A stretch of DNA of 62,879 nt, counting the filler, from Psammoneis japonica (taxonomy: Eukaryota): NCBI GenBank assembly GCA_008632985.1. It is 5 parts of 5 records of this genome, joined end to end, with 100 filler letters (N's around TTAATTAATTAA, not from the genome) between each part and the next. Parts side by side here need not be neighbours in the genome. Positions count along the whole stretch, not along the records: positions 1 to 12,665 come from QPGO01000509.1; 4 more parts are not named here. One strand, written 5' to 3'. Under the pieces are notes generated by a model. It was given only the letters and a program-made list of their open reading frames with translations. It searched no databases and had not been told where the DNA came from. Of this stretch, positions 2,815 through 50,684 are shown piece after piece (position 1 is the stretch's first letter; each line of letters opens with the position of its first letter). The position numbers were made by a program, and so were the translations under genes.

Positions 2815-3074
2815 CTCTTCAGAAAAAAAATGATGCGTTGCGTTGTGTTTTGGGGGGTGGAGATTTTATGGCGCGTTTCGCGCGGCGAGTGCGCGGAAAA
2901 GAGCAAAAGACGCATTTTTGCATAAAAAGTCTCCAAAATTGCTCGTTTCGCACGACCTCTGAACCACAACATTGACAACGGCCATGTGGACTTCTTGGGA
3001 CGGCCGAGATGAGGCCTGTCACACATGGCTTTTGTCTTGGACCTGTTGAGAGAGGAACTTTGTCGAATCAACTT

Positions 3075-3170
3075 CAGCAGCAGCAACAGCAACAACAGCA
3101 ACAACAGCAACAACAGCAGCAGCAGCAGCAGCAGCAGCAAGGTCAAGAACAACAACAAGAACAAGAACAA
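3075..3170 (+). repeat. (CAG/CAA)n microsatellite
   Basis: Directly visible cagcagcagcaacagcaacaa... array. Confidence 0.95.
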
Positions 3171-5339
3171 CCCACCCAAAACAATGGTGTGTCTCTTTGC
3201 ACATGCTTGCCTCTGCTGGGGCCCTTTGTCAAACACCATGAAACCCACATTCAGCTCCCTTTTGTGCCATCAGATTGGCAGCGTGCAAAGGCTCCATCCA
3301 GCAAGGTTTGCTTGCCAAAGTTTCAGCCCTCTCTCAATTTGCAGGGGGGCAGGAGCAAGAGCTCCTCTCTGCCTTCTTGCCCAGAATCAAGTGCGCGGGT
3401 GCATCTGTGCAAGATGGTGTTGAATCTTGGAGGACATTTGAATGAAGCAGGAGTCAACAGCTGTCAGGTGTGCAAGGTGTTTGAAGACTGTCTCACACCC
3501 TGTCTGTGGCATGAGGTTGAAATTGTGCAGGGGGTGAGCCACTTTCACTTCATGTGGTGACTCTTGTCATGGCCAGCTGGCACACTTGAGGCCCTGTCAA
3601 GCATTTTTGCACCAAGTGAGTGCTGCTCTGTGTTTGTGATGCTGACAAGTGAGCTGCAAAGAGTGGTGGATTTGTTGGCTGGACACAAGAACAATGAGCA
3701 ACAAGAACAACAAAATGGCTGAACATGACAAGCTGCCTTCAAATGTTTCACGCAAGGGGAAACAAGATGGCAAGGGTGCAGCCGCTTTTTAGAAGGAGAC
3801 AAGAAATCACTGTCCCTGGGTTCATCCCTGAGTGTCCAAGCCAGAGCTTGGGCCCAGGAAAGAACCTGCTGGAAATTGACCATGATGACAGGACACAGCA
3901 AAGACTCTCAGCCATTCACTTGACATCAGAAAGCAGATGACAAAGAGCATGCAAACTCTCTTCAACATGAGCACTCCAGTGGAGCAGCAAGAAAGTGCTG
4001 CTCACAATGTTTTTGTCTGTCTTTTACAAAATGACAACACGTCCTTGGGCAGCTTTCTGAGCTCAAGGTGGCACCGTTGGCCAATGAGGTCATGTTCTCA
4101 GCTTGGAAGAAGGCTCCCTCACATTTGAGTTTGGACTTTGGCTTGTGCATCTCTGCTGCAACCAAGCACTTTTTCAAAGTGTGTGTGTGACAAAAAAGAG
4201 AAAATTGTCATTTTTGTTGCAGTGACACAAAAAGTTTCCTTGCAACAACAATTTTTTCTGTGATGCATGAGAGCTGCAGATGCAGTTGCATCTGAGCACA
4301 TGCAGTGTGAGCAGTCATTTTGGGCATGTGGTGCCCTCAGTGTGGCGCTGTGCCACACTGATGCCACAATGCAGGTGGCAACACTGCAGCACTGCAAACC
4401 AAAACAGCGCAGTTCTGTGCAAACAACCATTGTCCCTGTTCATCTCCATTTGTCTCCATGCGTGCACTGGCAGCCAAAAATTTCTCACTTTGTCTCATGC
4501 ACCACAATGTGTGCAGTCACCAACTGTCTTGATTTGTTTCAAGTTGTCTCACATTGTCTTGCTGCTTTGTCCAGGAGGAGGAGAGGCTTCATCTGTCAAA
4601 TGTGACATGATGGGAGGATGCAGAGCACTGCTGAGAGAATCAACTGCAATGAAGAACACAAGTGGCGGTGCTGCAAAACAAGACGACAATGTTTTGCACG
4701 GCAAAGAGAACAGCGCTGCAACTCAAACATCTGTCAATGGCAAGCTCTTTGTTCAGTCATTCAATGACACTGCTCTCACTCCTGGATCTGTCAGCTGCAA
4801 AGCCAAGCTAAAAATTTCTGCTGTCTTCTTCACATTGCACCATTGAGAGCTGAGAGCAAGTCACTTGCTCTGCCAATGCAGAGGGTGTTCTTGATGTTCG
4901 TCACATTGCATGCCACAAATTTGATGTTTTCATGAGTCACGTGCAACTCTTCATTCTGGCATGTCGTCTGTCATGCACCATCTTGCTCAATGGACTGTGT
5001 CATGACCCGGTTCAAGATCCCACTCATGAAAGAGACACGAGTGTTGTGCACTCCATTTCTGTCTTCTTGCACAAGCCACTTCTGGGCCTCATGTTGCCTC
5101 AAACACTCACACTGCAACACCAGATGTTCAACACTTGAAGAGCTTTCACATCAGATTTGGTCATTGAAAGACAACTTGAGCTGTGTGAAAGCAAACACTG
5201 CTTTGTGTGCCCCAGACGGGGTGTCACAAAAGTGCAGAAAGAGCCAGCAGAAAGAAAGCAAGCTCTCCACAACTCTCCATCATTGCCTTTGAGGGCTTTC
5301 TGAAACACATGAGAGTGGCAAAAACTGGACCGCCATTGC

Positions 5340-5487
5340 CACAAGTGGGCTTGCAAGCATGGGATGCACACTCCCAAGACTTGTGATGAAGCAGCACAAA
5401 TTGACAAGACTGGCTGGGGCCGTCAATGGCAGAATGCCATCAACAAGGAAATGGGTGTTGTCAGGAAAGCTTTCAAGATCATTGACA
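5340..5487 (+). mobile_element. Decayed diatom-type Ty1/copia fragment (segment just before RT)
   Basis: Translates KHGMHTPKTCDEAAQIDKTGWGRQWQNAINKEMGVVRKAFK, resembling the K-Y-G..P.T..EA..ID......W..AI.KEM....F motif of diatom copia, with Y->H/C. Confidence 0.7.
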
Positions 5488-5506
5488 TTCTTGCTCTGAA
5501 GCTGCC

Positions 5507-6299
5507 GTGACTCACTTTGCTGCCATGACTGACTCCTCCACAACCAGAGCCATGAGAGTGGCTGGGAATGCTGGGGAGCCAATGACAAATGTGGTTGTAA
5601 GGGCATGAAAAAAGTGGCAAAGATTGCAGCTGTCCTTGAAATCCCCAGTGGTTGAAAGAGTTGGGCACCAGCACAGCTGTGAAAGTTTTGATCTCAACAA
5701 GAGTGCATTGACACAAGGCACAAAATGAGATGCCAACCTTCTGCAGACACAAGCACGACAAATCTGATTTAAGTGGTCATTTTCACCCAGGTGTCAATTG
5801 AAGAAAGTTGCAATGACTCACTCAAGCCAGCTCAAGTCATTGAAAAATGCAGCAGTGCCACCTTCTGCAGACACAAGCAAAGCAAATCTGATTTGCATGT
5901 TCTTTGCACCCAAGTGTCAATTGAAGAAAGTTGCAATGACGTGGCTCACTCTGCTGCCATGACTGACTCCTCCACACAACCAGAGCCATGAGAGCAGCTG
6001 CAAATGCTGGGGAGCCAATGACAAATGTGGTTGTGAGGGCATGAAACAGATGGCAAAGATTGCAGGCTGTCCTTGAAGTCCCAAGCAGTTGAAAGAGACA
6101 GTGTGCACCAGCACAGCTGTGAAAATTTTGATCTCAACAAGAGTGCATTGACACATGGCACAAAATGAGACCCCAACCTTCTGCAGACAAAAGCACGACA
6201 AATCTGATTTAAGAGGTCATTTGCACCCAGGTGTCAATTGAAGAAAGTTGCAATGACTCACTCAAGCCAGCTCAAGTCATTGAAAAATGCAGCAGTGCC
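5507..6299 (+). repeat. Tandem duplication (~434 bp offset) with an extra partial sub-repeat
   Basis: Copies start at 5507 and 5941 and both end in gaaaaatgcagcagtgcc. gttgTAagg (5598) versus gttgTGagg (6034). Confidence 0.9.
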
Positions 6300-8439
6300 T
6301 GTGAACATGGAATTTAAAAAAGGAGAGGATGTTGACCAACAGGCATTTCACCTCATGCAAGACACAAAGTGCAAAACACAGGACTTGCTCACCCCCATGA
6401 CAATGATCGCATTGTAGAAAGGAAGTGGCAGAGCAGAAGGCAGGGCAAAGCCAAACAAAGAAAGGTTGCAAAGCAATGTGGTGAGAGAAAGGGTGTGAGG
6501 TGCAAGCACAGGCAGCCATGACAACAATGCAAACAAATGACTCTGTTGCCAATCTTGATGCTCAGATGTGTTGACATGCAAGTTGAGAACAAAAAGAAAA
6601 CAGTGCTGCAGGGGCTGTGCAAAAGTGAGCAGAAGCCACACTGACCTCTTCTCTTCTGGCAGGCAAAGCTTTGTGGCAAACCCAGAATGATGAACAAGGG
6701 TTGCAGGACAATGTGAGGTCATGCCATGAAACAGAAGATCATGGAAACCAGCTGCCCAGCACATTGAAATGAAAGCCCAGCCACAACAGGACAATGTGAT
6801 GTGCAGATGGCAAGGGGCTGGATGTTGGGAGTGCTGGAAGAAATGACAAAGCAAAGAGCAGAAGAGAGCAGGAAACAGACAACAAGATGATTCAATGCAA
6901 AAATCCAAGCCATGGAACATGCAAATCAGATTGCAACCGCAGCACACAGCCAATGTGTGAAAGTGAGTTCATGAGATCAATTTGTGCAGCAAAGTCAGAT
7001 GTGGGCCACACTGCCAGCAAGTTGTTGCAAGTGCGCTGTTGTTTGGAACAAAAATCTGCAAGTCACAAGTTTCATTCATTGTCATTTCCTCCTCATCTTG
7101 TCAAGATCACATCATGTGCTGAAAGACCAAATTTTGTCAAGCATTGTTTCCTGCTTTGCCAGTTGGCTAGAATGTGGAAGGCCCTTTGACAAGAGCTGGC
7201 TGGCACTTGAGCTCTCACCAAGCACAGATCAACTCTAAATGAGAGTGACAAAAATTTCTGGACATGACTGGTGCCGATGTGCCAAAAAAGAAGCTGACGA
7301 TGCACACACGCTGCTTTTTTGCTCTTGCCATGGCATCACTGTGGTGTGAAATTTGGAAGCACACAGCCCAGAGCAACAGCACAACAGCTCTTTTAATTAA
7401 GTTGAGGAGCATTGACTGCACTTGCCATTTTTTGGCTTAAAACCACAGCAGCATGTTAAAAAACAGTGTGCAGAGTGCAAGGTGTTGCCAAAAGCTGTGC
7501 CTTGCCAGCCACATGCCACAACAGCTGAAGGCTCCACCCCACTGCACATGATGTTCTTGCCTCCTTCTAAGGCATCATCCTGAGCCATGCACTGCTTGAG
7601 AAGAAATGATGATGGCAAACTTGCTGCTGCATGTGAATGACCAGAGAGAGGCAGGTGCGTGGCTTGTGAAGAGGGCACACAGAGTGGAGTCACTGCCTTG
7701 GCTTGCCAAATGACCAACAAGGGGCAGGCAAGGAAAACATCATCTTGACTGCAGGAGTGAGCTGCACAATGGCAAGAGTGAGTCACAGAGTGATGGCTGA
7801 CATGAAACAACAATGCAGCACCATCTGGTGGCTCTGCACTCGCACCTGCAGCGGCACTTGTGCCAGCTCACTTTCCCAAGAGTCTGGTCAAGATGAGAAG
7901 AGTCTGAGAATGAGCAGTGCACACCTCATGTGCACCAGTGTCTGAGTGCTCAAGCCTCCAGCACAGCGAGGCTTGCTCAAGGAGACCAAGAAACTCGTTG
8001 TTGGGAGTGCTCGCAGACAGGGTGAGGCAAGGTGCAAGCATCAGTGCCACACTTGACACTGCACACACGCAGCACAGTGCTGGCGACTCTCTCTGCTCTC
8101 TCCAGCCAGTGGGAGCAGCTCTAGAGGTAGAGCAGCTGCTGGCAGAGAAAATCCAGAATCAGCAACACCTGGCTGGCACTCTACAGCACCTGTGCCAGTC
8201 GTGCAAATGTGGGTCCCGTAACCCGGAAATGTTCAGCAGTGCGGCAGTTCTCAAGCGCCAAGAGACAATGGACTTTGGAGATTCGGAAAAATTGGTCGCA
8301 CTGTCCATCCGTTGCCATGCATCCGAGATGAAAATCAGACGTGGTGCAAGCAGCTACCGGCAGTGTGGTGAATCATCGGCCGATGCTAAAAAGAAGACAC
8401 CATTGCACCACATCATCAAAAGAACATAGAGACAAGAGA

Positions 8440-9760
8440 TCACCATCATTAAGATCTACGTTGACAATCTAAAGCACTGGTTTTTAAACATGTGATTGCA
8501 TTGAAACCCCCAAGCAATCTCTCCACGAGTCGTCACCGGCAATCTCAAGATCCCGCCGCCGACGGTTGGTGTGTCACATGGGCTCCAACCACTGCCAGTG
8601 CTAGCAGCACAAAGGCTCCCACTGCCACCAGCACCTGCAGCAAAAGGCTCCAACCGCCTCCAGTGCCACTGGCACACAGGCACCCACCATCACCACTGGC
8701 TCCCACCGCCACCACTGCCAGCAGCACACAGGCTCCCACTGCCACCACTGCTGGCAGCAAAACACCTCCAATCACCACCACTGCCAGCAGCACGCAGGGG
8801 CACCAACAACACCAGACAAAAAGAATCCAACCACCTCGAATGCTGGTGGCACCCACCGCCACCAGATAAAAAGGACAGTGGTGCACAGGCTCCAACCGCC
8901 GCAAGCGCCAGCAGCTGTGCAGGGTACAGCCTCCCACTGCCACCAGTGCCAGCATCACACAGGGGCGCCCACCGCCACCAGATAGAAATGACAGCAGTGC
9001 ACAGGCTCCAACCGCCGCCAGTGCTGGCAGCCATGCAGGATGCAGCCTCCCACTGCCACCAGTGCCAGCATCACACGGGGGCACCAACTGTCACCAGATA
9101 AAAAAGATGGTTGTACACAGGCTCCAACATTTGCCAATGCCAGCAAACGCACAGGATGCAGGCTCACACTCTAGCAGCAAAAGGCTCCAACCGCCTCCAG
9201 TGCCAGCAGCACACAGGATCACACCGCCACCAGTGCTGGCCTTGACACACAGGCTCCCACTGCAACCACTGGCTAGCAGCAAAAAAGCTCCAACCACCAC
9301 CAGCACCAGCATCACACAGGGGTGCCAACCGCCACCAGATGAAAAGGACAGCAGTGCACAGGCTCCAGCCACCCCCAGTGCAAAAGCAGTGAAAGGCTCC
9401 TGCCGCCGCCAGTGCCACCACATTCAGCCCTGCCATGACATGTGGTCCAGTCCACAAATTTATGTTGAAAACAACACCGTCAGAGACGCCACCAATGAGA
9501 CAGATCTCTTTCAAACTTTCCAACACATTGTCACATCTAGAAGCATGTGCTGTGGCATGGCTGCGGGAATGTGCTGAAGACGCCGCCGCCGCATCATCAT
9601 CGTGAAAGTGCCGTTTGCGTTGGCCTCACGCAAATTTGAATGAGGCCTGATTGGCGCAACTGCCATTTCAGCATCGCCCCACGCAATGTTGCGTGCGTAG
9701 GATCCCACACAAGTTTTGTGAACGCATTGAAGGACAGGCCGAGTGCGACCATTTTTTCAA
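8440..9760 (+). mobile_element. TpA-depleted copy of the minisatellite-containing element found intact at 26.7-28.3 kb (opposite orientation)
   Basis: Internal gcaca(a/g)ggctcc(a/c)ac repeats. 9520-9720 aligns to the reverse complement of 26760-26950 (gccgccgccgcatcatcatcgtgaaagtgccgtt..gcaactgccatttcag). Confidence 0.75.
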
Positions 9761-10479
9761 ATCTCCACAGTCCATGGCCAAAGCAGCTGCGACTTTGAGG
9801 AAACACCACCCTGTCTTGATCTTGTCAAGCCATGAAGACAGAGAGAATGAGCACCCAGAGGGTGGAGTCACAGCATTTGACTTGGCACGCCCCTTGCGAT
9901 GATGTTTGTGCTTCCCACCACAACCACCAACACAACAGAGTGCTTGCTGTCAGTGCAATGTTGCAAATGACACCCAGCCCCCAATTCACCTGGAGCAGGC
10001 TGCAAAACAGTGGTGAGAGAAGCGGACACAAGACATGCAACAACAACGCAAGTGAGCACAAATGGGGGACTGGTGGGGACACTTGCCATGCAGCAGTTTT
10101 TTGCCATGGCAGTGGCTGAATTTTTTTTTGTGGGGTGCAGGTCGTGTGTGGGAGGAAATCTGACCGTTGAGTTCAAACCAAGTGTTGGGTTCAAATTTTC
10201 ATCAAAAAATGTCTGTCATGAACAAAACACAAAACTGTGCAATCTCAGGGATGTCAAATGTGCACAAAGCCAATGGACAGTTCATTGATCACAAGACACA
10301 CATGACGTCCACATGACGTGAGACTGTTGACCACTGCCCGGGATGGCAGCGACAGATTGGTGCCGCACTGTGTGCACCTTCTTCACCCTGGCACAAACAA
10401 AACAGAAGAAACAATCTCACAATGTGTGGGATTCCAACGGGGAAATGCGTGTTGAAATGTGAGACATGTCAAAAATTCA

Positions 10480-10780
10480 AAAAAACACTTGCCATTGATG
10501 CCATCACATCATTGCACACTTGCATGATGTCACGCACAATGCAGAAACAAGAAGAAAAAAAAAAAAATGACAAAACACTTGATGTGTTCCGCACACATGC
10601 AGAACAGGAGAAAAAACATTGCACAAAAAACTCCCAAGGCAGACTGCATGCAATGACAAAGGCACACACCAATGGCACAATGCAGGTCAAACAGCCACAT
10701 TGTTGACAAGGTCAACATCCATTGAGTGACGCCATTTGACAAATGACTCTCATGTGCAATTGGGAGGGGGGACGAATGCA
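10480..10780 (+). mobile_element. Gypsy integrase C-terminal relic followed by a polypurine tract
   Basis: KAHTNGTMQV...VNI resembles the GPY..(Y/H)TNGT..I..NIR integrase tail, followed by GGGAGGGGGGACGAA-TG. Confidence 0.5.
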
Positions 10781-11269
10781 ACATGCGTTGTCATGCACAT
10801 TTCACATGCATGTTCATTTGCCAAATGTCATTGTGTTTCAATTGTGCATCAATCATGGGTTTGCACAAAGGACACATTGATCACACAGAGTTGATCGGAT
10901 GTCTGAAATTGCAAACACAATTGATCGATGATGTCGACAAACTTGTGTGTCAATGTCAATTGTGTGCAGACAATCTGTTGTCACGACATTGTTCCCCGAA
11001 AGGCCTTTTGTCTGCAGAAGCAGCACAAAAGCTCCAGGCCATTGAGAACCTGATTGGAGAAACCCAAAATGATTGAATGCAATCCAATCTCACAATTTTC
11101 ACTTTTTGCACTTTGTTCCACTTTTGTTTGTGCTTGTTCTTCAAGCACAGTGCAGCTCGTCATCCTGGATCAAATGCGCGCATCATCCATGACAACAGTG
11201 GCAAGTTTGTTGGCTGGGAATTCAAATGTCATTGAATCAAGTGGGTGTTGATGATGCTCCAATGACACC

Positions 11270-11890
11270 TTGCAATCCTGTGACCAATGCCATTTGTGAA
11301 CGAACGCGACAGATGGTGGCCAACATCTTGCACACTGTGGTTGCCGCCAACCCTCCTTTGAATGCTTGACAGGCTGAGGCAACAGTGGAAGATGCCCTTG
11401 CTGCAGCAGCATCACATGCTTTACAATGTTCTCATTCAAGGTCAATGGGTGTCTCAAGTGGAGCTCTGGCATTCCAACATGACATGATTTTGGATCTGCC
11501 TGTTGCCACCGATCTTGCCGCAATCCAAGCCAACCGCCAAGTGTTGATTGACAAAAATCTGCAGAGACAGAGTGCAAAGCATCATTCCTGTGATTGTGCA
11601 GTCAGACAAGATGCAGCCACTGGTCAAGACCGTGGATCCCACAAAAAGGAAGGGGCGAGCTTGTGGCCCATGTTGAATTTCACAAGTCCATGCCAACAGG
11701 GCTGTTTTGGCACTGCCAGCACTGTGCATCCTCATTGAGCAGACTGGCATTTGTTGTGTGGCACCACATTGGAGTTGAGGGTTTCTTCCCAACATCTGGG
11801 TTCCCTTCTTCATGCACACCCAGTTTTGAATTTGAGTCAAGTGGCTCCAATGGTGTGCATGTTTCTTGCACCATGGAGGGGAAGAGTGAG
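11270..11890 (+). mobile_element. Decayed Ty3/gypsy integrase plus PPT
   Basis: NPVTNAICERTRQMVANIL..VEDALA..SSGALAFQHDMILDLP..D...I.ANRQVLIDKNL..SCDCAV (consensus NPQ.NAICER.HQ, SPG.L.F.RDM, DY.VG). PPT CATGGAGGGGAAGAG-TG at ~11872-11888. Confidence 0.8.
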
Positions 11891-12158
11891 CAAAATGGGG
11901 GCATGTGCTCAGGGCCAATGTGCCCTCTCTGACACGCGTGTGTTGACCAATGTGTCAGACATTCAAGGAGACCATCAGAAGTTCCCTGATTGGCAATTGA
12001 TGCTGATCGGGTTCCTTCTCTGTTCTCTCGCAACCATCCTTTTTACCTTTTTTCAAGTCATCTCAAGCCAGATCTTGCACTGCATGCACCATGCTGGCGG
12101 GGCGTGTGGCTGCAGTGCTCAACTTGCATGCTGCAACTGTGCACATCAGCGATGGAAG

Positions 12159-12625
12159 CTTTGCTCACGCTCCCAATGAAGACTTTGCAGCAATTGATTG
12201 CGCGCAATGCTTTTTTTCTTTGATGGGGGGACTGGTGGGTGCAGGTGCACAACAGCTCGAAAGAATCCTTTGGCGGTCACTTTTGCATCTCAAGCGACCT
12301 GGCAGGCTTTTCCTTCGAGAACAGGATGACAACTACAGCAGGATGACGACTTGCGGACAACTTTGCTTGCGCTCCCAATGAAGACTTTGCAGCAATTGAT
12401 TGCGCGCGATGCTTTTTTTGTTTGATGGGGGGGGACTGGGTGCAGGTGCATGACGGCTTGAAAGAATCCTTTAGCGGTCACTTTTGCCGTACGTCTCAAG
12501 CGACCTGGCAGGCTTTTCCTTCGAGAATGGGACGACAACTACAGTGGGATAACAACTTAGGTGCGCACAATTGACACCTTCGAGAATGGGATGACAACTA
12601 CAGTGGGACAACGACTTATGGACAA
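12159..12625 (+). repeat. 202-bp tandem duplication plus shorter sub-repeats
   Basis: ctttgct..gctcccaatgaagactttgcagcaattgattgcgcgc at 12159 and 12361; cttcgagaa..gacaactacag repeated three times. Confidence 0.85.
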
Positions 12626-16091: not shown

Positions 16092-16329
16092 TGATTAGCG
16101 TCCAACCAGGGCAGTTATTCAGCACAAAATCGAGACTACTGTATTCAGAAACTCAAGACTTTTCAGAACTCCCCATGTGTTGATGATGTGCCGCTTCCCA
16201 CTTTCCGCATTTCCAATCTGGTGTAATTAGCCTAGAACGATAATCCATTTTCATACATTTTTGTGGGAGCATTTCCGAAATGCCGAACACTTGCCGAACC
16301 TTCTGCACTGTAGGGCAGGAATGACTTCC

Positions 16330-19300
16330 AGGCAGAAAGAGCACATTCACGTCAGCAACCATCACTCTCACCTGATGACGAAAAAAAAAAAGGGTAAGGT
16401 GCCATGCACATGCATGTCACCTCCTGCCAAGCCTGTCACAATTCCTCACAAACTGCATCAATCCTCATTGCAACCATGACTGCCACCCTGCATCCTGACA
16501 CTCTTCCTGATTCCCATGATGTTCCCTTGCTGCAGGCAACAAATGCTCTGCTCAAGGTGGCCCGTGTCACCCCTGGTGTCCTTTGTGCACCTGTCACTGA
16601 TGAATCCATGCTGTGGTGTGCCCAGCACTGGCTCTCATCAGGCTGATCTAGTTGCTGCTGCAAGGACTTGTTTGCTTGCTGTCCTGATTTAATGCCATCC
16701 ATGAACCAAGTCGATGCAACCAGTGTCACACAACTTTTGGTGCTTGCACGCAGAACCAGCACCTCCATCCACAGAAGATGCAGCCAGTTGTTGTCTCCAT
16801 TCCTGCACCTGCATGAGGCATCTCTGCATCTGATGCTGATGCCACACAGCACCCATGGATTTGCCCCATTAGATTGACACAAGAGCAGCAAACTGTCTCT
16901 TGGACATGGCTTTTGATGATCTAACAAGGAAATTGACTGGTCCTGAGAGAGAAGCAGAGATGTCAGGAAAAGTCTGCTTTGGCGTCTTGTTCCAAGAGAA
17001 AGAGCAATGCCACAAGATCTTCCATGATTCAAGCAGATGCAATGATGTTTGCAAAATTGCCATGTGATTCCTGGGAAGAGATGGCTTTTTAAATCAATGA
17101 TTGTTGTTTGCAACAGCAGCTTCATCCCATTTCTCAAATCCGAGTGTCTCTCATTTGCCAGACATTTTGCTTCTGTGCCTGCACCAACTTGACAATGTTG
17201 ATTTTTTGTCTGAGAAGTGTGGAAAATGTCATTGGCAAAATTTGTCCATGACAAATGGCGCGCACCAACAAGGGAGCAAAGAACAAGACACCAACCAAGA
17301 AAACAGCTGGCAAGAACAATCAGAAGCGCCTTGTGCAGCAGTGCAGAGTTGTGGCACACAAGAGAGTGTGGATTAAAAAAATGTGGAGCCTGCTAAAAAA
17401 AAGGAGCAGATTGCCAACTCAGAAAGGGCAGCAGAAGGAACTGGAAATCAGCAATGATGTTGAATCTGGACTGGGCAAATGCAAAACATTTGACAGTGTG
17501 GCTGATGCAATGAAGGCGTGGGAGATGATTGTGAAGATTCGGAGGATGGAAGAATGCAACAGCAGCGGTGCTTTGCCTGAAGACAGCTGCACTTGCAGGT
17601 GTGATCATTTGTGAGTCAGATCCAGAGAATCTTTGTCTTTTGGAAATTGTGAGAGTTGCAGATGACAGTCTGCAGGTTTGGGAGCACCACAGATGCACCA
17701 TGAGTCGTGCACAAATGTGACAATGCCGCTGGGTGAAAGGGTGACCCTGGCGCCAAGGTGGGTGCAATGCTCCAGCCAGCTGACACATTGATGGTGGCTC
17801 CAGTCAAAGCATTGCTGGGGCTGAAGCTGAAGGCTGCAGCAATGACCAGGTCCAGCCATGTTGCCTCTGCCTTTGAGCCAGTTGGTGGCTGCTGGCACAG
17901 TCTCACAAGCAGAAGCATGTTGCCAGCGGCCAAGGTGGCTTGTGTGGCATGACACTCAGCAGAGTGGGCGGCTCGGAGCTGGGCACTGAGTGCCATTGTC
18001 AGTGACAACAACTTGCGCAGGGAGTGCCAGAGAGGTGGTGGCCAGACTGTCTGCTGTTGCAGAGATGCCAAGCAACAGCCAGGGCAATGTTGTTGGAATT
18101 GAGGTCTGGACAAACACCACCACACTGCTTTGACAGCTGTGCTGACCAGATTGGAGCTGGAGAATGCCAAAAAGGCCAGAAATGGTCCCTCCAGAAGGAA
18201 GGCACCATCAAGAAAGTGGACAGCAGTCCATGACCACACTTCTCAGAGAGAGAAAACAAGGCAGCCAGCAATGCAGAAGCGCCAGAAGCTGAAGCTGAAG
18301 CACCAGCGGTGATGAAAGAAAAGAACAAGATTGCTGCAGCTTCTTGAGTGCTTGCAGCCATGAGTGCTGCTTCTGCGGCATGCAAAATGCCTCTGAAGCA
18401 GCGTCACAAAAAAACAGACCCCGCCCCACTCACGCATGGGGGGGCATGGACCACCATCTCCTGTTGGTCTCTGATCTGTGCCAAGGCAACATTGGGGAAG
18501 CACAACATCCAATCTGAGCAGGAGCTTGAGCTGTGGGACATTTGCAAGAATGACAAAGCCCTCATCATCATCTCCAATGATGAGCTGTTGGCAAGCCCCC
18601 TTTTTGTTTGTTGACACATGTTGAGTGCACCTCACTTGACAACACTGGCACCACCATCCAAGGGTGACAGAGCAGTCATTGAGCATTGCACTGCATGAGT
18701 TGACACAGATGACTCCCTCTGAGCTGAATCTTTGGAGGCTTGGAGAGACACCATTGGTGCATGCAGCTTGGCTCCAGGGGTGAAAACTTTGGATTTGAGT
18801 GATGATGGCACCATTTGTGTCACAGAACCTTTGGCCCTTGGTGCAGGCTGTTGGCTGCATTGTCAGGGCTGGGGGGCACCACTCAAATGTGCAATGCTCC
18901 AGTGCTTGTGTGGCATCACAGATGAAAGTGCAGCAGCTTTTTTCAGGGGCCAAAAATGAGAAAAGGGTGTTCCACTTGCATCTGTCACACAGCTCCATTG
19001 GCAGCATGTGCCAAAAATGAGAGATTTGGAGCACTGTTTGAGAGGAGCCCACTGTCTTCCAGCGGGCTGCAAGTTGCGAAGGCAACATGAGGAAATCCAG
19101 ACATCTGGATGGCTGAGCCCTCCAGATGACACAATCTGACAGCTGTTGCTGCAGTGATCGTGATGTGGAGGAGAGTCTTTTGTTTTGTGTGGTGCGAGTC
19201 TGGCAGCTCTGTGTGTGCACAGCAGATGAGCTCATTGGGAATGGTGCTGCCAAGTTGCTCTCCTTTTAATTGAATCCCAACAGTCACAACCAAGCTTGAA

Positions 19301-20350
19301 GAGGGAAAGCCAGATGGGTGGGAGACAAGGAGATGCTGCCTGGGGATGCTGTGTTGACCCCCACCATCTCATCGTCTGCACAAATCTGTCGCTGAAGGCA
19401 ATCTCTGCACCTGGTCAAGCCACTTGCAATGCCAGCTGCAAGTGTTCTCCAGCCAAATTGGCTGGACATTAGAGGGGGCTTGTTCTGGAGTGCCATCACA
19501 TTGCTGTCTGTTGTGATGAATTCTCACACCTCACGAGCCTGTTTTTGTGAGAGTCAGGTTCATCTGCGCAGGATGTGTCTGGTCCTTTTTGACCCTTTCC
19601 CCTCATTCTTCAACCACATTGTCTTCACAATCTAAGACATGACATTGTCCATGTTGTTTTTGGAGATCTTGGTGGTGCAACTGCATTTCTGGGCTTTGCA
19701 CTTGGTGAAATGAAGAGGTGGAGGATGGTTTGGCCGGGCACCTCACCTCCTCTTGGCTGCGCGGATGCCACAAACCACTGCTGGTGCCAGGTTCCATAAA
19801 ATTTGGCAGAGTCACTCAGAACCACCTCTGGGAGCTCATGTGGTGAGTGTGCTGTGATGTGTGTCCTCATTGGTTCATTGTTGTGTGTTTCGTTCCACTC
19901 GCCACATTTGCACCGCCTTGCTTGCTTGTCAGCAGTTTGCCAGCACGGAGTGTCTGTGGCTGCTGCGAGAGCCACATGACATGTGTTCTTTGACAACATT
20001 TGTTCATTTGGGGAATCAGATCCTGGAGTTTTCATTGTCTGGTTGTGGACAAATGTGGAAGATGGAGTTTGCTGCAGCAGGCGAACGTGCAATTGCGCTG
20101 TGTCTCTCGACGGCAGAGTTGGCAGCGAGCGTGTGCACATTGTCCCATGAGCACCAAACCAGCAGATGATGTGTTTGGATTTAGATGGCTCAATGGCTGT
20201 CATTGTTTGTTAGTCTGCCAGTGTTCATTAGAGTTGCGACTGTGTTGGAGCAACATCACATCATGGTCATGCCAGGTGCGGCACGGCGGTGGCACGGGCA
20301 CAATGCGGTGGCCCTTCCGGACTTCTTTTGCGTGTTTTCGACATGTGTTT
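16330..20350. other. TpA-depleted block of decayed coding/repeat sequence
   Basis: Near absence of TA from ~16.4 to ~19.6 kb, with TA returning gradually toward 20.35 kb. Confidence 0.85.
18480..19170 (+). pseudogene. Hypermutated partial paralogue of the LRR gene at 22.9-24.1 kb
   Basis: ttggggaagc..acatccaatctga..ggagcttga.ctgtggg, ttggatttga, tttggccctt and gaggaaatc.agac..caatctgaca are shared with 23221-24080. Confidence 0.85.
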
Positions 20351-21684
20351 GTAAAAAGCATAAAAAATTACCAATCTTTTAATCATTTATGACGCAATTA
20401 TGGAAAAAATATCCCAACGCATTCGGCGCTCACCGTGCAAACAACACGACAATGGCCGAAATGCCGTTCGTTCTCGAAAAATTAGAGGGGCAGCCTCCAA
20501 CTTTTTTCAGGGTATATCTCGTTTGATATAGGTAACAAACTTATGAAGAAAGTTGGAGGCATACCCACCTCCATTGCGTTCAACGAACGGCATTTCAGCC
20601 ATTGTCGTGTTGTTCTGCACGGTGAGCTCATAGAATTCGCGCTCAAGACGTTTGAGCGTTTTTCCATAAATCGCACGCATTCGCAAAAACTACTGTCTTA
20701 TTTTTATCCGTTTTTCCAGTGAAATTTCCAAAATGCCACAAACCACTGCTGGTGCCAGGTTCCATAAAATTTGGCAGAGTCACTCAGAACCACCTCTGGG
20801 AGCTCATGTGGTGAGTGTGCTGTGATGTGTGTCCTCATTGGTTCATTGTTGTGTGCTTTGTTCCGCTCACGTTTGCATTTTGCTTGTCAGCTTGCCAGCA
20901 TGGATGTCTGTGGCTGCTGCGAGAGCCGCGCGACATGTGTTCTTTGACAACATTTGTTCATTTGGGGAATCAGATCCTGGAGTTTTCATTGTCTGGTTGT
21001 GGACAAATGTGGAAGATGGAGTTTGCTGCAGCAGGCGAACGTGCAATTGCGCTGTGTCTCTCGACGGCAGAGTTGGCAGCGAGCGTGTGTACATTGTCCC
21101 ATGAGCGCCAAACCAGCAGATGATGTGTTTGGATTTAGATGGGCTCAATGGCTGTCATTGTTTGTTAGTCTACCAGTGTTCATTAGAGTTGCGACTGTGT
21201 TGGAGCAACATCACATCATGGTCATGCCAGGTACGGCACGGAGGTGGCACGGTGCACAGTGCGGTGGCCCTTCCGGACTTCTTTTGCGTGTTTTCGACAT
21301 ATATTTGTAAAAAGCATAAAAAATAACCAATCTTTTAATCATTTATGACGCAATTATGGAAAAAATATCCCAACGCGTTCGGCGCTCACCGTGCAAACAA
21401 CACGACAATGGCCGAAATGCCGTTCGTTCTCGAAATCTTAGAGGGGAAGCCTCCAACTTTTTTCAGGGTATATCTCGCTTGATATGGGTAACAAACTTAT
21501 GAAGAAAGTTGGAGGCCTACCCACCTCCATTGCGTTCAACGAACGGCATTTCAGCCATTGTCGTGTTGTTTGCACGGTGAGCTCAGAATTCGCGCTCAAG
21601 CCGTTTGAGCGTTTTTCTATAAATCGCACGCATTCGCAAAAAATACTGTCTTATTTTATCCGTTTTTCAAGTGCGTTCCAAAAT
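19765..21684 (+). repeat. Recent head-to-tail tandem duplication, period 968 bp (19765-20732 / 20733-21684)
   Basis: Both copies start atgccacaaaccactgctggtgccagg and end ..ttccaaaat; highly similar throughout. Confidence 0.95.
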
Positions 21685-28255: not shown

Positions 28256-28366
28256 TGCATGGCATGCTGTGCACAGCGCGAGCGGCGGGGACAGTCCATG
28301 AATGACGTCAATGTGACAACATGATGCGCATCTGTCTATCCTATCTAACAACAAAATTTTTCAGTC

Positions 28367-28790
28367 ATAAGCAGTGTGCACCTAAATTTTGTGGGAAAAA
28401 AACCGTTAAATAATTAAGTGGATGAATATGTTTCAATGATCATATCTCTCCCTCAAACACTATCATCCGAACAAACCCTCAGTGTCTTACCCCCCTTTTC
28501 ATATACGAGGAATTTGGTTCTGCTGTTCGTTTTCTCCGATAACGCGATTTGGGAAAACAGCCGTTAAATTTATTAGTGAATGGATATATTTAACNGGTTT
28601 TTTCTCAAATCGCGTTATAGGAGAAAACGAACAGCAGAACCAAATTCCTCGTATATGAAAAGGGGGGTAAGACACTGAGGGTTTGTTCGGATGATAGTGT
28701 TTGAGGGAGAGATATGATCATTGAAACATATCCATCCACTTAATTATTTAACGGTTTTTTTCCCACAAAATTTAGGTGCACACTGCTTAT
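28367..28790. mobile_element. ~424-bp near-perfect palindrome (MITE-like hairpin, possible TA target site)
   Basis: Arms ~28367-28567 and ~28591-28790 are reverse complements with a few mismatches (ATAAGCAGTGTGCACC..GGTGCACACTGCTTAT). Single n at 28595. Confidence 0.7.
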
Positions 28791-29384
28791 TGCCAAAAAT
28801 TTCCGTTGCTTTGAATGTCTATATGAACTAAAAAGAGGAAGAAAATTTCAACCGAATCAAAATTGATACTGTTGGACAAAAATGTTGGTATATTAAAGCC
28901 GACTTTACATACACACTCTATAGCCAAGTAACGTTCTTTAAATATTAATATAGTTAATGTCTTTTTACCTATATTAAATTTTCAACATTCACACGAATAA
29001 CTGAGATGCCAACCGGCAGCAACCCGCGCCGCCAGCATACAAACAACACGCCATACTTACTGCACTGCAACAGCAACGCCGCACATTGGGCGCCAACAAT
29101 CCAAGACCTGCAAGTACGTGAAGAGACGACCCAACGGCAATCGGGTAGTCGTGTGTTGTGTGTGTGTGTTTTCTTTTAATGTGGGCGAGGCATTGTGCCA
29201 ACAACAAGAACGAGATTGACTACTCGGTTGATCACCACTCCAACGTACTATTTTTATTATTTTCGTCGGTGGTAACCTTTGACTTGTGGTACAACTTCTA
29301 CGTGGTTTCTACGCCGTATTTGTTCTGGAGTTGAAAAACGCTAAACGAGTGCTTTTGAAGTAGTTTTGAACGAGAAACACAACC

Positions 29385-32300
29385 ATGAGAGCAACAACAA
29401 CAAAAACCATGATACTCAAATGTCTGCTATATCTACTTTTATTGAATTGTTTTGCTTCTGCCCAAATTGTCAGTGTCGGTCCGTTTGTGGATACCGACAC
29501 GTGTTATGGTGCTCTGAGTGCGTCCGACTGTTGTCCCGATGACAACTTGATTGATCGTCAAGAATATGTCACGTTTGTTCAACTCTCGGGTCCCGACGGA
29601 TTCTTGGAAAATGTTACCTCCTTTCCGGAATTGCCGGTGATTTTGCAACTCAATTTCAATGCCCTCGCATGTCTCTGTACCAATTTGGAGGGAGCCGCCG
29701 ATGATTGTTGTATCGGTGACAAGGCACGCATCAATATCACGGGTGTCGATGAAGGACAAGTGACACCCTATCTCTTTTCTGTCTGTCTATTTACCGACAC
29801 CTCGATCAATCGCGTCATCTCCAGCAATGCACCCAGTGCCTCACCGACAATCATGCCTTCGTCTGCACCCAGTCTTGTTCCGGGAACACCCACCATGGCA
29901 CCCACCACGAGCGGCCCCACGTTGACGGCGGCACCTTCGTTGGAAACGACACCGGATTTTGAAACCGTCATGGTGCCCTATCCCATTGCGGTACAAGATG
30001 GATTGGTACAAGAGGTGGATCCCTCGTCGTATACGGACGATTTGATTGCCGCCATGAATATGGTGGCCACCAATGTCGCGCTCTCAGAATTTCGAATGCG
30101 ACGACGACGACAATTGCGTGTTGCCAACCGACGATTGGCTGTCATGGTGCGAACACCCACGGCCATTACAGGAACGATTGTGATTCGTAAGTAAACAAAA
30201 AAGAACGTGTACAGAGGCTTGCCATTTGCATATGACACTCACCCACTCTCTCTCTCTCTCTCTTTTCTTTTTCAACAACACAGCTTGTCCGGATGGCATT
30301 CCCGATACAGACGAATGCCGCGAAGTCAATCACATGGTGATTCTCGAGATTACCGACGAGGACGATCCGGCTGCGGTGCGGGATGCCTACCAACAAGCCT
30401 TGACGGAAGCCATTTTTGTCAATGGTGATTTGCAAACGGCCCTGACGGTTGTCAACCCCAATTCTGTCGTGCGAATCTTGTCTCCCGCCGACGCACCGAC
30501 TCCGGCACCGGCACCCGACGGTGGCATTTCGGGGGGAGGCATTGTCGGGATTGTCATTGCTGCATCCGTCGTTACCATTGCCGGTGTCGGGTACTTTGTG
30601 TTTCGTCGCAAACGTGCGCAAGACAAGGATGACGATTGTCCGTACATGCCTTCGACGGAAGACAAGGCGGCCGTGTTGGGTGCCGGAACGGCATCGTATG
30701 GCAAGGGAAACAAACGCAATGATACCGATACCGAATTGGCTGTTGCGTCCGCAGCCAAAAAAACAGACGATTCCTCTTCGAATGCAGGATCGAGTGGATG
30801 GTCTTCGTCGGCGGGTGTGTCGAGTCTCAATTCCGAACAAGACGATGCACAACGAGGTGCGAGTTTGGCAGCCATGGGAGTGGCGAGTGCACGATCGGCC
30901 AGCAAGATTGAAAGCGGCGACGTGCCGGACGCGACGGTGATGCGTGCCGATTTGGACAGTGCCATTGATTCGGGTGATTGGGCCGCGGTCGGTGCCACGG
31001 CGTCACTCTTGGCGGCCGCATCGGATTCGCAATCCCATTCCTCCAAGAGCCGCAAATCGGGCACGTCTGCCTCGAGGGGTGGATCGTCCGCCTCGTCCAT
31101 TGACGCGGCGCGTGTGGCCGAGTTGGATCACTTGGTGGATGCCGGCGATTGGGAGGGTGTCGTCTTGGCGGCGGCCCGGTTTGAAAAGTCCAAAGGAGAG
31201 TCGTCCACGTCGAAATCGGAATCGATAAGCAAGAATTCCGGTTCGCAGTCGGGTTCCGCGACGCGCAGTGGAACGGTTGGATCGTCCGAGTATTATACGG
31301 GTTCGTATTCGGGTACGGGAAGTGGTAGCTATGGCACCTCCTCGGGATACTCGCAAGGCGAAACCACCAGTCTCAGTGACAGTCCGAGCAAGCAGGCGAA
31401 GCGTGCCGAGATTCGTAATGAAGTCGAGGCACTGGTGCGTCGTGTCGTGCCGGACGAGATTGACAATTTGGATGAAATGATGTTGCAGTTCCGTGGACGC
31501 GAAGAGGAATTGGTGGAGACCTTGAGGACCATGCAGGAACGCAGCATTGCCCAGCGTGCAAGGGCGGCGGACCGCCAGAGTGCCAAGATTCAGGCGCGCG
31601 ATGAGGTTCGTAAAGCGAGGCAGGGTGATAACGCCGCCGCAGCAGCGGCGGCTGGAGGCGGTTTTGACGGAGGATTGTCGGGAGGAGCCGTGGCTGGTAT
31701 TGCCGCGGGTGCGGCAGTTGGTGGAGCAGCGCTTGGTGCGGCCGGAGCCGCTGTAGCGGCCAAGAGCAAAAAGGATGATAAGGACGATAAAGCGAAGGCT
31801 GCACCGGCTCTCAAGTCGGAGGACGAAGGCGGCACGGCTGAGACGGAGCGAAAGCGCAGGAGAACAGCGCTCGAGGAGGCTATTGATGCTGGTGACTGGG
31901 AGGCTGTCGGGGAAGCGGCTGCCATGATGAGTGATGCGAGTGTCACAACGGCGTCGTCGCGGTCCGTTCCAGCCTCGTTGGATACAGACGCGAGCAGCCG
32001 AAAGAAGAGGACCGGTGTCAATGCCGAGCGTGCGGCAGAGCTTGACGCGTTGATTGACAAGGGTGACTGGACGGGAGTCATGGCTGCGGCGGGTAACTTT
32101 TCCAAGACAGAGAGAGAAGGCAAGAGCATGACTAGCAGTAGTCCCGATACGAGCCGGGACGATGGCAAGAGCACGGGTACTGGTAGTGGCGGAAGCAAAC
32201 GAAGAAGCTGGTTTGGAAGGAAGAAATCGGATACTTCAGCCGGCAAGAGCGACGATGCCAGTTCTGGATCGTCCAAGGCCAAAAAGGCCAAGGCATTAAA

Positions 32301-32529: not shown

Positions 32530-34289
32530 GGCTAATCATTTCGTTCTTTGTGTGTGTAGTGTGGTGCAACTCCCTGGTAGTATGCAGTGTGTTTTTTGTG
32601 CCATTTGTGATTGTGAAGCAGAATTATCTTAAGCGTTCGTCGAAACTCTAATAACATGAATTAAGTTCTTTGAGCAGCCTTTATTTTGTATTTTCGTGAT
32701 TGGCACCGAGAGGTAGTTGTTGATTGCATCGAATTCGAGTAGCTAGAGAAGTGTCTATTACGCACAGCAGTGGTGTCGAAAACAACGGTAAACTCGATTG
32801 CGGTGTCATTGCAGGGCCCCACTGTACATAGGGTCCTGCTAGCTAGTAGAGCATGGCTAGTAATAGTTGTCCATGACAGAATTGCTGCTGGTCAGCTCTC
32901 GAGACCACACGTGCTGTGCTGTAAGATAAGAGCTGCGGTGCGATGCTGTCTCAACGCAAAACGACAATTCTTGGAGAAATGTGAGCACCACCGTACTTGA
33001 CGGTGAATCTACAGCATGTCTCGAAACACAACATGCCAAGGAGATTTGTTGGGTGCTGCCAATCAAATCCAACAAAAACCACCCATGGCCATGGCTTCAC
33101 ACGGGACTCCATTTGCTTCAGATTCAACCTTGACAGTCAAAGTTCCATTGAAGCAAGCAATGCCCTCAACACAAAAATTGAGAGAAACATTGCCGGATGG
33201 AAGAAAAATGGTCACACCCTGTTCAAGATGGAGAGCTGCCAAAGCAGACAGACCGTCCCAAACAGGAAATTTCAGCAACATTGACAGCCTCATCATGGTG
33301 TTGTTTGAAATTGAAGAAAGGGGATTGACAGAGAAGCAACATTGCTGGTTGAAGCTTGCAAACTGAGTTCTGCCTCACACCTGCCCTGTGTGACATAATC
33401 CAATCTTTGGCATGTCCTACTCTGCACAGCCAGCATGGAGAAAATGCATGGACAGCTGCTTGAGAAAGGCAGTGTGCAAAGAAGATTGAATTGTTGCCTT
33501 TGTGGGTAGAAAATGTTGTGAAGCCAAGCAGCGATCCACATCAATTTTCCCATTTCATGGACAGCATTGTTGAAAAACATCACGCAAAAAAATGGCAACA
33601 AAGGGTGCTGGATGCACTGGTGCAATTTTGTCTGACATGCCCACCTTTGCTTCTTTCCTTGAATGCATTCTTTGTCATCATGCACACTGTCATCATTCAC
33701 ATCTTTGTCCAAAGGAAAAGCAACTAAACAGCAGCGAGGCACTGGATTTTGGCACAAAAAGAGTGGGGTTGCTTGCGTGGACACAATCATTTTCTGCGGC
33801 AACTCCACTGTGGACAATGATGCTGAAAAAAAAAACACTCAGCCATCAGAGGCCACAACACAGTGGCTGTCACTTTCCTTTTGCCAATTGTTGTCTTTTA
33901 ACAGCACACAAATGTGTCCATTGTTTGACATTTTTGCTTTAAAAACATTTGCATGCGTTGCATTTAATTTGTCCGTTTTGTGCCACTTCATGTCAACTGT
34001 TTTTTTTTAAATGAATTTTCCCAATCCATTTCAACTGGCCTTCTTTTTGATTTTCACATGTTTCATTTTGACAACATTGTCAATTTCATTTTTGTCATTG
34101 ATCTTTGACAGTGGTCATCAATGGCTCCACCCCCTGCATGCGCCACCCGCAGTGGCTGGTGTCCCCTGTGTGCCCAAGTCCTCCCCTCTGCACTTCTGGC
34201 CTCACAATTGTCTCCAGCACTTTCCATGATCTCATTGCATCTGTCACTGCCTGGATTTTAGTGCACATTGCACATGCATGACATTCTGC

Positions 34290-34850
34290 CTGTTTCACAA
34301 CAGTGCATCCTCTCCCCAAAATGCTTTTGACCAGAGCATGCACTGTTGTGATTCATGCACCTTCCGCGTGAATCACCAACTGTTTTTTGGCCATGGCGGT
34401 CAACAAGTTTACCCCGTCCCATGACAAGGTCAATCCTGACCCTTCCTTCCAATCCATTCATGAGTTTGACTTTGATGAAACAGAACATTTTACCAATGGT
34501 TTTGGATTTGAATTGTTTGGACCCAAGCTCAAAAGCACAACTGCAATGCGTGCATCCAAAAAGCAGTTTTCGGAGACAACAAGTTCATCCCCCTCTCCAG
34601 AATTCCTTGCCCTTCCCTTCCTTTGTCACAAGCTGAAGTTGCATCACATTCCACATGTTGCAGATGTTGTCCACACCAATGACATTGTCAGGAAAACTCT
34701 TGGACACCCTGACATTTGGTCCTGCATCAGCACTCACGGTTGGTCCTTAAAGAAATCACGCACGCTGAAAGGTGAATGTGTTCTTTGATGTCAAAATTTG
34801 GAGGAAGCTCTCTGTTTCTCCAAACCACCTGGAGAGACAGGAAAAGAACA
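34290..34850 (+). repeat. Decayed coding segment with an inverted paralogue at ~39730-40690
   Basis: PEFLALPFLCHKLKLHHIPHVADVVHTNDIVRKTL versus PEFLVLLFLCHKLKLRCIPCVAKVICTNNIVGKTL; also EHFTNGF..FGPK..SKKQF in both copies. Confidence 0.85.
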
Positions 34851-37800: not shown

Positions 37801-39104
37801 CCGCATGTTCTCCACATTTGACACAAGAGACTTTGTGAACAATGCCCTCAATTGTGGGTTTACCATGCACAAGTGCAAGGAGTGTTGGGACTGTGTCGCG
37901 AATCACCAGGACAGGTGGGGCATGAGGCACTGTGTGCACAGTCATTGCCACAAAGATGGGTGGAGTCAAATGAGAGATGAGTTCGCAGTGGGATCCGTGG
38001 GCTAAATGGAGTTTGCCATGGATGTGGATGACATTCATGGTTTGAGGGACAAGTCACTCATCAGCTTGCCGACTTGTTGAGTGGATGATGAAGGAACGTG
38101 CGGACCACTTGGACAAAGTTCAAGGTGGGGAGGAATGTTCCAACTGGTGATGGACAAAGATGGGATCACCTTTGATGCCCCAACACTGGCAAAGTGATTC
38201 AATCATGATGTGAGATGTGACATGCCTGACAACCTTTGGTTTTGTGATGGACTTGAGTTCTTTTGTTTGTCACCNNNNNNNNNNNNNNNNNNNNNNNNNN
38301 NNNNNNNNNNNNNNNNNNTTAATTAATTAANNNNNNNNNNNNNNNNNNNNNNNNNNNNNNNNNNNNNNNNNNNNGCAAGCAAGCGCTGAGTGCAATTTTT
38401 GGGGGCACCATGTCTCCATTGTTGTTCTGGAGCAAACAGCAAATGGTGTTGATTTGGCTGATGCAGCCAACGTGCACGTGCACCTTGACAATCTGTCGCG
38501 CTGCATTCTGACATTTTGGAATGAAAAGAAGTGCTTGCATTTGCATCCCTCTGTCACAACAGAAATGTGCAAGCTTTCCCTGGCCCTTTTGGAGCAGTCG
38601 GTGGGTGAGTGAAAGCAGACCTGTTGAAAGATGCAGATGACGCCATTTTGACACCATTTTGATGCATTGTCATCTGGTGGTGTCCTTGTCATTTGTGATG
38701 AAGTGCCATGCTCTCTGGTTTTGCAGAGCGCGCATCAGTGATCTGCCCCCCTTTTCAGTGGCAATTTTTGTTCCTTTGGCAGACAAAACATTTGTGGTTT
38801 CAAACCTCATCAGCTGCGCAGCTGGCAATGAGTGGTTGCCTGTGCAAGACAAATGATTTCTGCCAGGAAGCCCAACTCTCAACTGTCAAATCACTTGTGC
38901 CACCAAACATCCTCCTTTGCATCCTGTCAATGTACGAGCCCTCTTTTGCTGCAGAAACTGACAATCAACAACATTTTGGTTTTTGCATCACAAGCTGAAA
39001 TTTGAGTGACAATGCTTTCTGTGCATTGACTTTTGTTCCGCTTTCCTCAATGAACTCTGAACATTGCTTTTGCTTGCACACACAGTGCATCAATGAACAC
39101 CAAA

Positions 39105-39683
39105 TCAATGCTCTGTTGTCTGGCATTTTTTAAGTTGCAACAGGCTTGCACTGCAGCTCAGCTCACAGCTTTTGTTGTCATTGTCCACTTTGCTGTCTTT
39201 GTTTTCTTCCTCATTGCCTCTGTTGTTTGGTTTGTCCATTTTCTCTTCATTGTCTTCATTGTCGCCAGAAAGCTCTGTTGTTGCTTGTGTTCTTGTCTCC
39301 GTCCCCACCAGCTTTTCAGTGGTTTGGCCCTTTCTTTTTCCTTTTCCTTCACTCTCCTTTTTCTTTGCATTGGCATGCCATGTGTCGAGCTGCACATCTG
39401 GCTCACTTGCCCTGTCATCCTTCACCTCCCCAAGCAGGGCAGTGAGTTGCTTCATTCCACCATCCTTCCAAGAGTCACGCTGATGCAACGGGTCTGTGTG
39501 CAAGGGCGCCGGTTTTGTTTCCTTCTCCTCCTCTTTGCTCCACTCTTCCTTTCCCTCTTGCTTGGATTTTTGCTCCCAAACCTTCCAGCAATTTTCCAAT
39601 GCCAACAGCACCATTGCCTGGTTGCTTGCCATGACCAGCTCTGTGACCTTTGTGTTGCCTGACTCCGCCATCCTTCTCCACAT
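39105..39683 (-). pseudogene. Decayed ORF of a multicopy, probably transposon-associated diatom protein family
   Basis: ASNQAMVLLALENCWKVW...PLHTD...SWKDGGMKQL..L..VKDDR resembles an SDEA..LL..ENY...W / YT / GW..EG...DR pattern I recall from repetitive diatom hypothetical proteins. Family assignment not verified. Confidence 0.45.
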
Positions 39684-50584: not shown

Positions 50585-50684
50585 NNNNNNNNNNNNNNNN
50601 NNNNNNNNNNNNNNNNNNNNNNNNNNNNTTAATTAATTAANNNNNNNNNNNNNNNNNNNNNNNNNNNNNNNNNNNNNNNNNNNN

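Follow-up and report, generated by a model that had tools for sequence, protein, structure and literature searches.

We analyzed the loss of TA dinucleotide steps from repeat DNA of the diatom Psammoneis japonica (assembly GCA_008632985.1; total size 91 Mb, eukaryotic). The window, that is, the whole stretch of DNA analyzed, comprises 62,879 nucleotides joined from five parts of this genome. TA-normal DNA (31–59 TA/kb) alternates in it with blocks at 0–4 TA/kb that carry an excess of TG and CA; genes are spared, the MCM4 region being TA-normal. The rate at which a TA step was changed depended on its flanking bases, as measured on copies of copia retrotransposons. The features of the window are given below by position (R, purine; Y, pyrimidine).

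2924–12471, no strand: block of old DNA derived from repeats, depleted of TA (4.2 TA/kb vs ~40 in the flanking DNA; CG also low)
3000–8100, no strand: stretch of surviving TA steps (15 TAs: 0 RTAY, 12 YTAR, 7 TTAA)
4671–5181, plus strand: repeat with relatives elsewhere
5503–6299, plus strand: tandem duplication of 91.7% identity (5503–5859 and 5937–6299)
16312–20181, no strand: second TA-depleted block, whose edge reaches into the first copy of a ~970-bp duplication
19765–21684, plus strand: the ~970-bp tandem duplication (19765–20734 vs 20733–21684; 94.7% identity), first copy edited in part
33011–52326, no strand: third TA-depleted block, with a high-copy element and satellite arrays
56900–62879, minus strand: young copia element (RVT_2), TA erased and CG mostly kept
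56779–58752, minus strand: copia open reading frame (ORF) with four remaining Tyr codons
369–2098, minus strand: MCM4 gene of normal TA content, identified by protein matches

Pieces of the block at 2924–12471 matched dispersed repeats elsewhere at 65–85% identity, and a Pfam scan of its five longest frames gave no credible domain. Where the aligned relatives of the repeat at 4671–5181 have TA, the window mostly has TG or CA and never TA. In the duplication at 5503–6299, the second copy has GTGA for the GTAA at 5598, and both copies retain TTAA. A BLASTN comparison of 3000–8100 with the copia loci L090–L159 gave no match.

An earlier note on this DNA had listed the TA steps surviving in 3000–8100 and had seen no RTAY (GTAC, ATAT, GTAT, or ATAC) among them. 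The list proved complete at 15 TAs in 5.1 kb (positions 3790, 4025, 4809, 5598, 5770, 6210, 6315, 6415, 7168, 7236, 7394, 7398, 7438, 7457, and 7568), and RTAY was indeed absent. The shares of RTAY, YTAR, and TTAA in TA-normal DNA are 30.5%, 17.6%, and 4.8%, giving P = 0.004, 2e-7, and 3e-6, respectively, values that are slightly optimistic because one repeat, present twice, contributed the TAs at both 5770 and 6210. The data rejected an equal depletion of all NTAN tetramers. In the window, relative survival ranged between 0 (ATAC and ATAT) and 0.39 (TTAA); eight arbitrary 10-kb stretches spanned 0.014–0.43, with depleted versus normal counts of 6 vs 616 for RTAY and 59 vs 338 for YTAR. Approximately one-third of these arbitrary stretches was affected (27,532 of 78,818 classified bases), and therefore the process shapes the genome.

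The 968-bp duplication described in the earlier note is real, and its first copy has been partly edited at the edge of a domain. The sites named there were as claimed within the edge zone 20130–20400: GTAC, CTAC, GTAC, and ATATAT (two TAs) were changed, and TTAG (three times), GTAA, ATAA, TTAA, and TTAT were kept. However, two changed sites had been omitted (CTAT at 21618, and ATAG at 20530, which was changed in the other copy), as had four RTAY sites kept in both copies at ~20412–20530, outside the edited domain.

Flank effects on the editing rate

Surviving steps cannot separate rates from back-mutation; therefore, unedited copies were sought. By an RVT_2 search together with DNA searches, three copia groups were obtained that include a TA-rich copy. 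For the window's own copia family, 16 stretches were fetched, and no TA-rich copy was present among them. This family was thus unusable for rates, and its columns holding both TG and CA confirmed only the direction of the edits. For family B, one unedited copy with 282 TA sites served as the reference, and the other copies showed a graded loss, retaining from 272/282 down to ~20/250 TAs. The model split every TA into two targets in competition, one on either strand, and left the exposure free for each 15-site block of each copy. A fit with one exposure per copy was rejected in favor of block exposures, as it blurred the effects because editing is patchy.

Thirty copies were tabulated and seven were dropped: three for shared descent (L129 equaled L132 at 97/97 edited sites, and L142 and L146 were judged by eye), one for low identity, and three that were nearly unedited. 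Four older B copies, two fragments, edit-free blocks, and sites with changed neighbors were also left out of the fit. Flank effects were thus measured by comparing edited with unedited copia copies, in a final fit of 3993 observations at 730 TA sites in 23 copies with 200 site bootstraps.

Positions are counted from the edited adenine (A*), with the T of the TA step at −1. At +1, the relative rates were 1.91 for T (1.74–2.40), 1.69 for C (1.48–2.01), 0.67 for G, and 0.47 for A (0.36–0.53). At +2, they were 1.36 for T, 1.31 for C, 0.92 for G, and 0.61 for A. Upstream, A stood highest both at −2 (A 1.45, C 0.91, G 0.88, T 0.86) and at −3 (A 1.81, G 1.22, C 0.88, T 0.51), and rates beyond −3 and +2 lay between 0.81 and 1.29. 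Read on the edited adenine's own strand, TAY was edited 3.3 times as fast as TAR (3.0–4.7). The earlier note had proposed a preference for roughly (not T)-T-A-Y, of which T-A-Y was thereby borne out. The "(not T)" at −2 was not supported, since TTAY relative to (C,G)TAY was 1.11 (0.80–1.48); only A was outstanding at this position, with ATAY relative to (C,G)TAY at 1.66. TTA survives because the opposite strand reads TAA, so that the survival of TTA and of TAA is a single fact.

The direction of the edits followed the same rule. YTAY went to TG in 741 cases vs CA in 280, RTAR went to CA in 234 vs TG in 87, and the symmetric classes split near evenly (TG/CA 467/493 and 134/160). It is therefore the edited strand that carries the +1 effect. 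The effects at −3 and +2, which the earlier note had missed, are near mirror images of each other, and a fit on direction alone found them only partly strand-specific. Altogether, editing is fastest at 5′-R-(A)-T-A*-Y-Y-3′ and slowest at T-N-T-A-A-A. A special preference for TACG was rejected (TACG 0.49 vs TACT 0.47 and TATA 0.50). In a cruder fit, families C and D showed the same +1 and −3 trends, with references that are only ~90% identical.

For a site to persist, both of its adenines must be slow; therefore, RTAY disappears, and YTAR, TTAA in particular, is left. Ranked by predicted editing rate, all 15 survivors of 3000–8100 fell within the slowest 21%, with the median at the 4th percentile. 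The four Tyr codons left in the copia ORF all follow a pyrimidine, as had been noted (C-TAC three times and T-TAT once), and T stands at −3 in each of them. For DNA that had played no part in the fit (315,703 bases depleted, 84,537 normal), we further compared predicted rates with survival. The two correlated at rho −0.78 over 136 hexamer classes, in test DNA that is not fully independent, as its old-repeat part includes related copies.

Product, domains, and timing of the edits

In family B, edits totaled 1429 TA to TG and 1167 TA to CA, and changes of both adenines (TA to CG) numbered at most two per copy. TA targets were edited to TG at 1075/2597, compared with 0.6–1.2% at CA, GA, and AA (AA to AG, 44/3640), and transversions at A amounted to 9/15,363. 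The rare non-TA A>G changes inside domains, counted where present in at most two copies, followed the +1 pyrimidine rule in 52 of 60 cases. Their frequencies were 1.43% at AAY (21/1464), 1.25% at CAY (24/1919), and 0.34% at GAY (7/2089), compared with 8/6635 at NAR (0.05–0.18%); outside domains, every class lay at 0–0.31%. When two older copies were added, 87 of 124 distinct non-TA sites were NAY vs 45% expected. As a rough estimate from 83% of TA edited vs 1.3% of AAY and CAY, T at −1 is selected ~60–100-fold.

Edits were grouped in domains of several kb. In six of the ten youngest edited copies, the 5′ half was 70–100% edited and the 3′ end was largely untouched. Editing in L121, L125–L127, L157, and L159 of family B peaked 0.5–2.5 kb from the 5′ end and faded toward the 3′ end, and several other family B copies had a 5′ long terminal repeat (LTR) less edited than the DNA just inside it. 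This polarity suggests that editing nucleates close to the promoter or the gag region and then spreads. The two LTRs of one copy differed, with 11/14 sites edited in one vs 0/14 in its twin, and editing thus followed insertion. Neither strand coordination nor transcription bias was found in the edited family B copies: of 2240 pairs of neighboring edits, 1161 shared a strand, vs a permutation null of 1136 ± 20, and the sense/antisense odds of 0.90 (0.80–1.01) showed no clear bias. These results therefore argue against the editing of complementary DNA (cDNA) and against one processive pass.

TA editing appears to be recent, since copies 95–99% identical to the unedited copy were already edited. 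The loci L090–L119 and L120–L159 include a very young copia family, with at least 15 copies 98–99% identical over the reverse transcriptase region and many copies almost unedited beside fully edited relatives; it represents a burst observed while editing was under way. Inserted in the copia element of one of these loci is a 327-bp element (L090:1078–1404) whose terminal inverted repeats are short and of which many copies of 94–98% identity occur.

CG decay accompanied the loss of TA but was slower. CG to TG changes reached 3.0% inside domains vs 0.7% outside, and CG survival was 0.62–0.65 in all four R/Y classes. The young copia element at 56900–62879 has lost TA and keeps 64 CG/kb, while old blocks, e.g., 2924–12471, have lost both and hold 13–23 CG/kb. 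TA erasure thus precedes CG decay. The CG decay would fit the usual loss of methylated CG within the chromatin of these domains.

Mechanism, rival explanations, and related systems

On balance, we consider it probable that the pattern of lost and surviving TAs was left by an A:T>G:C mutator that is targeted locally and acts on chromosomal repeats once these have inserted, through deoxyadenosine deamination by a chromatin-recruited zinc deaminase. The adenine of either strand is an independent target, its rate set by its own flanks; in the proposed chemistry, the deoxyadenosine would be deaminated to inosine and copied as G. The enzyme would be recruited to silenced, probably methylated chromatin, and its many rounds of action would serve as a defense against transposons, as proposed for the alga Bigelowiella natans. 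Adenine deamination seems the likeliest mechanism because the product is almost purely A>G and because TadA-fold editors can show T at −1 and Y at +1. More tentatively, and with chances that we put just short of even, diatoms would possess a nuclear editor of adenine (or converter of thymine) in DNA that is of natural origin; recruited to the silenced chromatin of transposons, it would nucleate in the 5′ part of young retrotransposons, spread, and read 5′-R-(A)-T-A*-Y-Y-3′ at ~60–100-fold T(−1) selectivity. None of the deaminases compared below has this motif.

Several points weigh against the deaminase account. Most of the data come from one copia family (B). The modified base may be the partner T, as T-A*-Y is R-T*-A in sequence. 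A processive single-strand deaminase would often leave strand-coordinated runs and a sense bias, and neither such runs nor a clear bias were found. Because the −3 and +2 effects are nearly palindromic, part of the rule may stem from the shape of the duplex or from access to the chromatin rather than from the pocket of an enzyme. The motif also mismatches those of natural TadA and of BjADAT2 (GAA). Finally, the candidate deaminases of the genome, named from our reading of motifs and Pfam matches, are not tied to the process: three look like ordinary TadA (with an N-terminal extension), ADAT2, and dCMP deaminase, and the others are a putative deaminase fusion and one AID/APOBEC-like gene.

The AID/APOBEC-like candidate is a 320-aa frame (L172:1060–2022, minus strand; G000:C2) with HAE and PCxxC motifs and matches to APOBEC_N (E 7e-10) and NAD1 (E 2e-10). 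The fusion is a 491-aa frame (L170:16–1491, minus strand; G000:C79) in which a zinc deaminase domain precedes what we read as a putative 2-oxoglutarate/Fe(II) oxygenase domain. L173, taken up as an APOBEC, was rejected as a false match.

A thymine-centered chemistry is an unlikely alternative, in which the T of 5′-R-T*-A-3′ would be oxidized, O4-alkylated, or aminated and would then pair with G or become C or 5-methylcytosine. It gives the same signature read on the other base and is formally indistinguishable from adenine editing in genome data, and the co-located CG decay is as expected for a chromatin-bound base modifier. To our knowledge, no nuclear DNA enzyme modifies T in such a way. Engineered adenine deaminases that prefer T at −1 and Y at +1, by contrast, do exist (PMC13225742, PMC12528748).

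We think it rather improbable that error-prone repair is responsible, whereby patches in methylated repeats would be filled by a DNA polymerase eta (Pol eta)- or iota-like polymerase placing G opposite T. TA counts as a WA hotspot (W, A or T) on either strand, and such hotspots, AA included, are described for Pol eta in somatic hypermutation (PMC7884765). TA>TG on both strands, AAY as the best non-TA context, and the domain-like, two-stranded editing all fit this explanation. Nevertheless, AA was edited tens of times below TA and about as CA, so it is no comparable target here. Transversions were almost absent, TA loss greatly outpaced the loss of CG by which the patches would be triggered, and short-range strand coordination was lacking.

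A flank-blind mutator, with survivors shaped by base composition, back-mutation, or selection, is very improbable, and the measurements reject it. Among the TAs present in old copies, 61/169 were newly arisen; therefore, old survivors are not all original. Yet the bias was measured at known TA sites of young copies, appears in the direction of the edits, recurs in the non-TA edits, and predicts unrelated DNA. Moreover, 0/61 of the new TAs were ATAT or ATAC, and the filter is therefore still acting on newly arisen TAs. That long reads miscalled modified bases in repeats is scarcely credible, as contigs of run X1, which may be the assembly's own sample and so test base calls and not a second strain, matched five stretches in 3176–8305 (245–2420 bases each) with 0 substitutions at a depth of 34–41.

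The closest known system is that of Bigelowiella, where TpA hypermutation of integrated nucleocytoplasmic large DNA virus (NCLDV) and virophage DNA was found by mutation accumulation (Mettrop et al., bioRxiv 10.64898/2026.01.13.699255). According to the main text of this preprint, the process is ongoing, with a ~1000-fold raised rate in some lines, and a deaminase is proposed. Both systems turn TA into TG or CA on both strands, almost only at TpA, and are confined to regions of mobile or foreign DNA. However, Bigelowiella is a rhizarian and the present host a stramenopile; the targets here are copia elements, other repeats, and satellites, the loss is almost complete, and CG decays too. In its main text, the preprint gives neither a rule on flanking bases nor any mention of diatoms, although its figures or supplements may hold a sequence logo. 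Literature searches, in which subscription journals were mostly uncovered, found neither a diatom report of TpA hypermutation nor any follow-up of the preprint.

Natural TadA, which edits bacterial RNA, needs YTACGAA in a stem-loop, and a C-to-T change at +1 abolishes its editing (PMC12255301). The present process shares with it A>G with T at −1 and a good C at +1, whereas here TAT is edited as fast as TAC, −2 favors A, +2 G is neutral and not favored, and +3 and +4 are nearly flat. The engineered TadA editors ABE8e, ABE3.1, and ABE8e-YA have TA and YAY>YAR preferences (PMC13225742, PMC12528748), which resemble the genome-wide A>G at TA and the advantage of YAY over YAR found here. ABE3.1 and ABE8e-YA, however, are YA editors that take CA too, whereas CAY here stood at ~1%, and the present process is natural and domain-targeted. 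The TadA analogy drawn in the earlier note thus stands for T at −1 and, against the engineered editors, for Y at +1, but not for natural TadA. The amphioxus BjADAT2/3 is a natural ADAT2 that deaminates A in DNA and prefers GAA and TCG (PMC10354150); here, GAR was at background (4/2282), and CG decayed without an R/Y flank rule.

Fungal repeat-induced point mutation (RIP) likewise represents a repeat-confined dinucleotide hypermutation that follows insertion. RIP changes C to T, mostly at CpA, and so creates TpA, whereas here TpA is removed by A:T>G:C; the RIP-type change CA to TA occurred at 8/4490 inside domains, not above the outside level. APOBEC-type cDNA editing, which acts on one strand in coordinated runs before integration, differs in the strand counts and in the unequal LTR twins given above.

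To a process that one preprint had described, the analysis adds a second lineage and a signature obtained by measurement. In chromosomal DNA, a natural mutator from A to G had been seen once, in one alga, with only TpA as the motif in the main text of that source. The strand-resolved signature provides a pass/fail assay for candidate enzymes, which must show a ~3-fold TAY/TAR ratio, a ~3.5-fold A/T ratio at −3, and off-target editing of close to 1% at AAY and CAY. It speaks against the motifs of natural TadA, BjADAT2-like enzymes, and Pol eta, and with it the 231 Bigelowiella mutations can be used to test for a single enzyme common to both systems. If Bigelowiella shares the rule, this would point to an ancient defense of the SAR (stramenopiles, alveolates, and Rhizaria) supergroup. 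The flank rule is also a fingerprint for the proposed DNA-editing defense against transposons, and a natural, highly selective adenine editor, if real, would be of interest to base-editing work.

Other features of the window

Among the 120 matches listed for MCM4, the organism-named relatives were diatoms at 51–60% identity, except for two non-diatom matches at 40–47%. A satellite-like array at 40900–50550, with units of ~300 and 590 bp and internal palindromes, is nearly TA-free. At 30730–31225, a 500-bp TA-free, CG-rich stretch lies within a 781-aa open frame and probably reflects coding composition, not editing. The sequence at 16300–19700 was also found at ~100% identity on another contig (L051, G000:C166), which may be a recent duplication or a redundant haplotig. 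A 225-bp inverted repeat at 28349–28808, 94% complementary with a 10-nt spacer, lies in TA-normal DNA.

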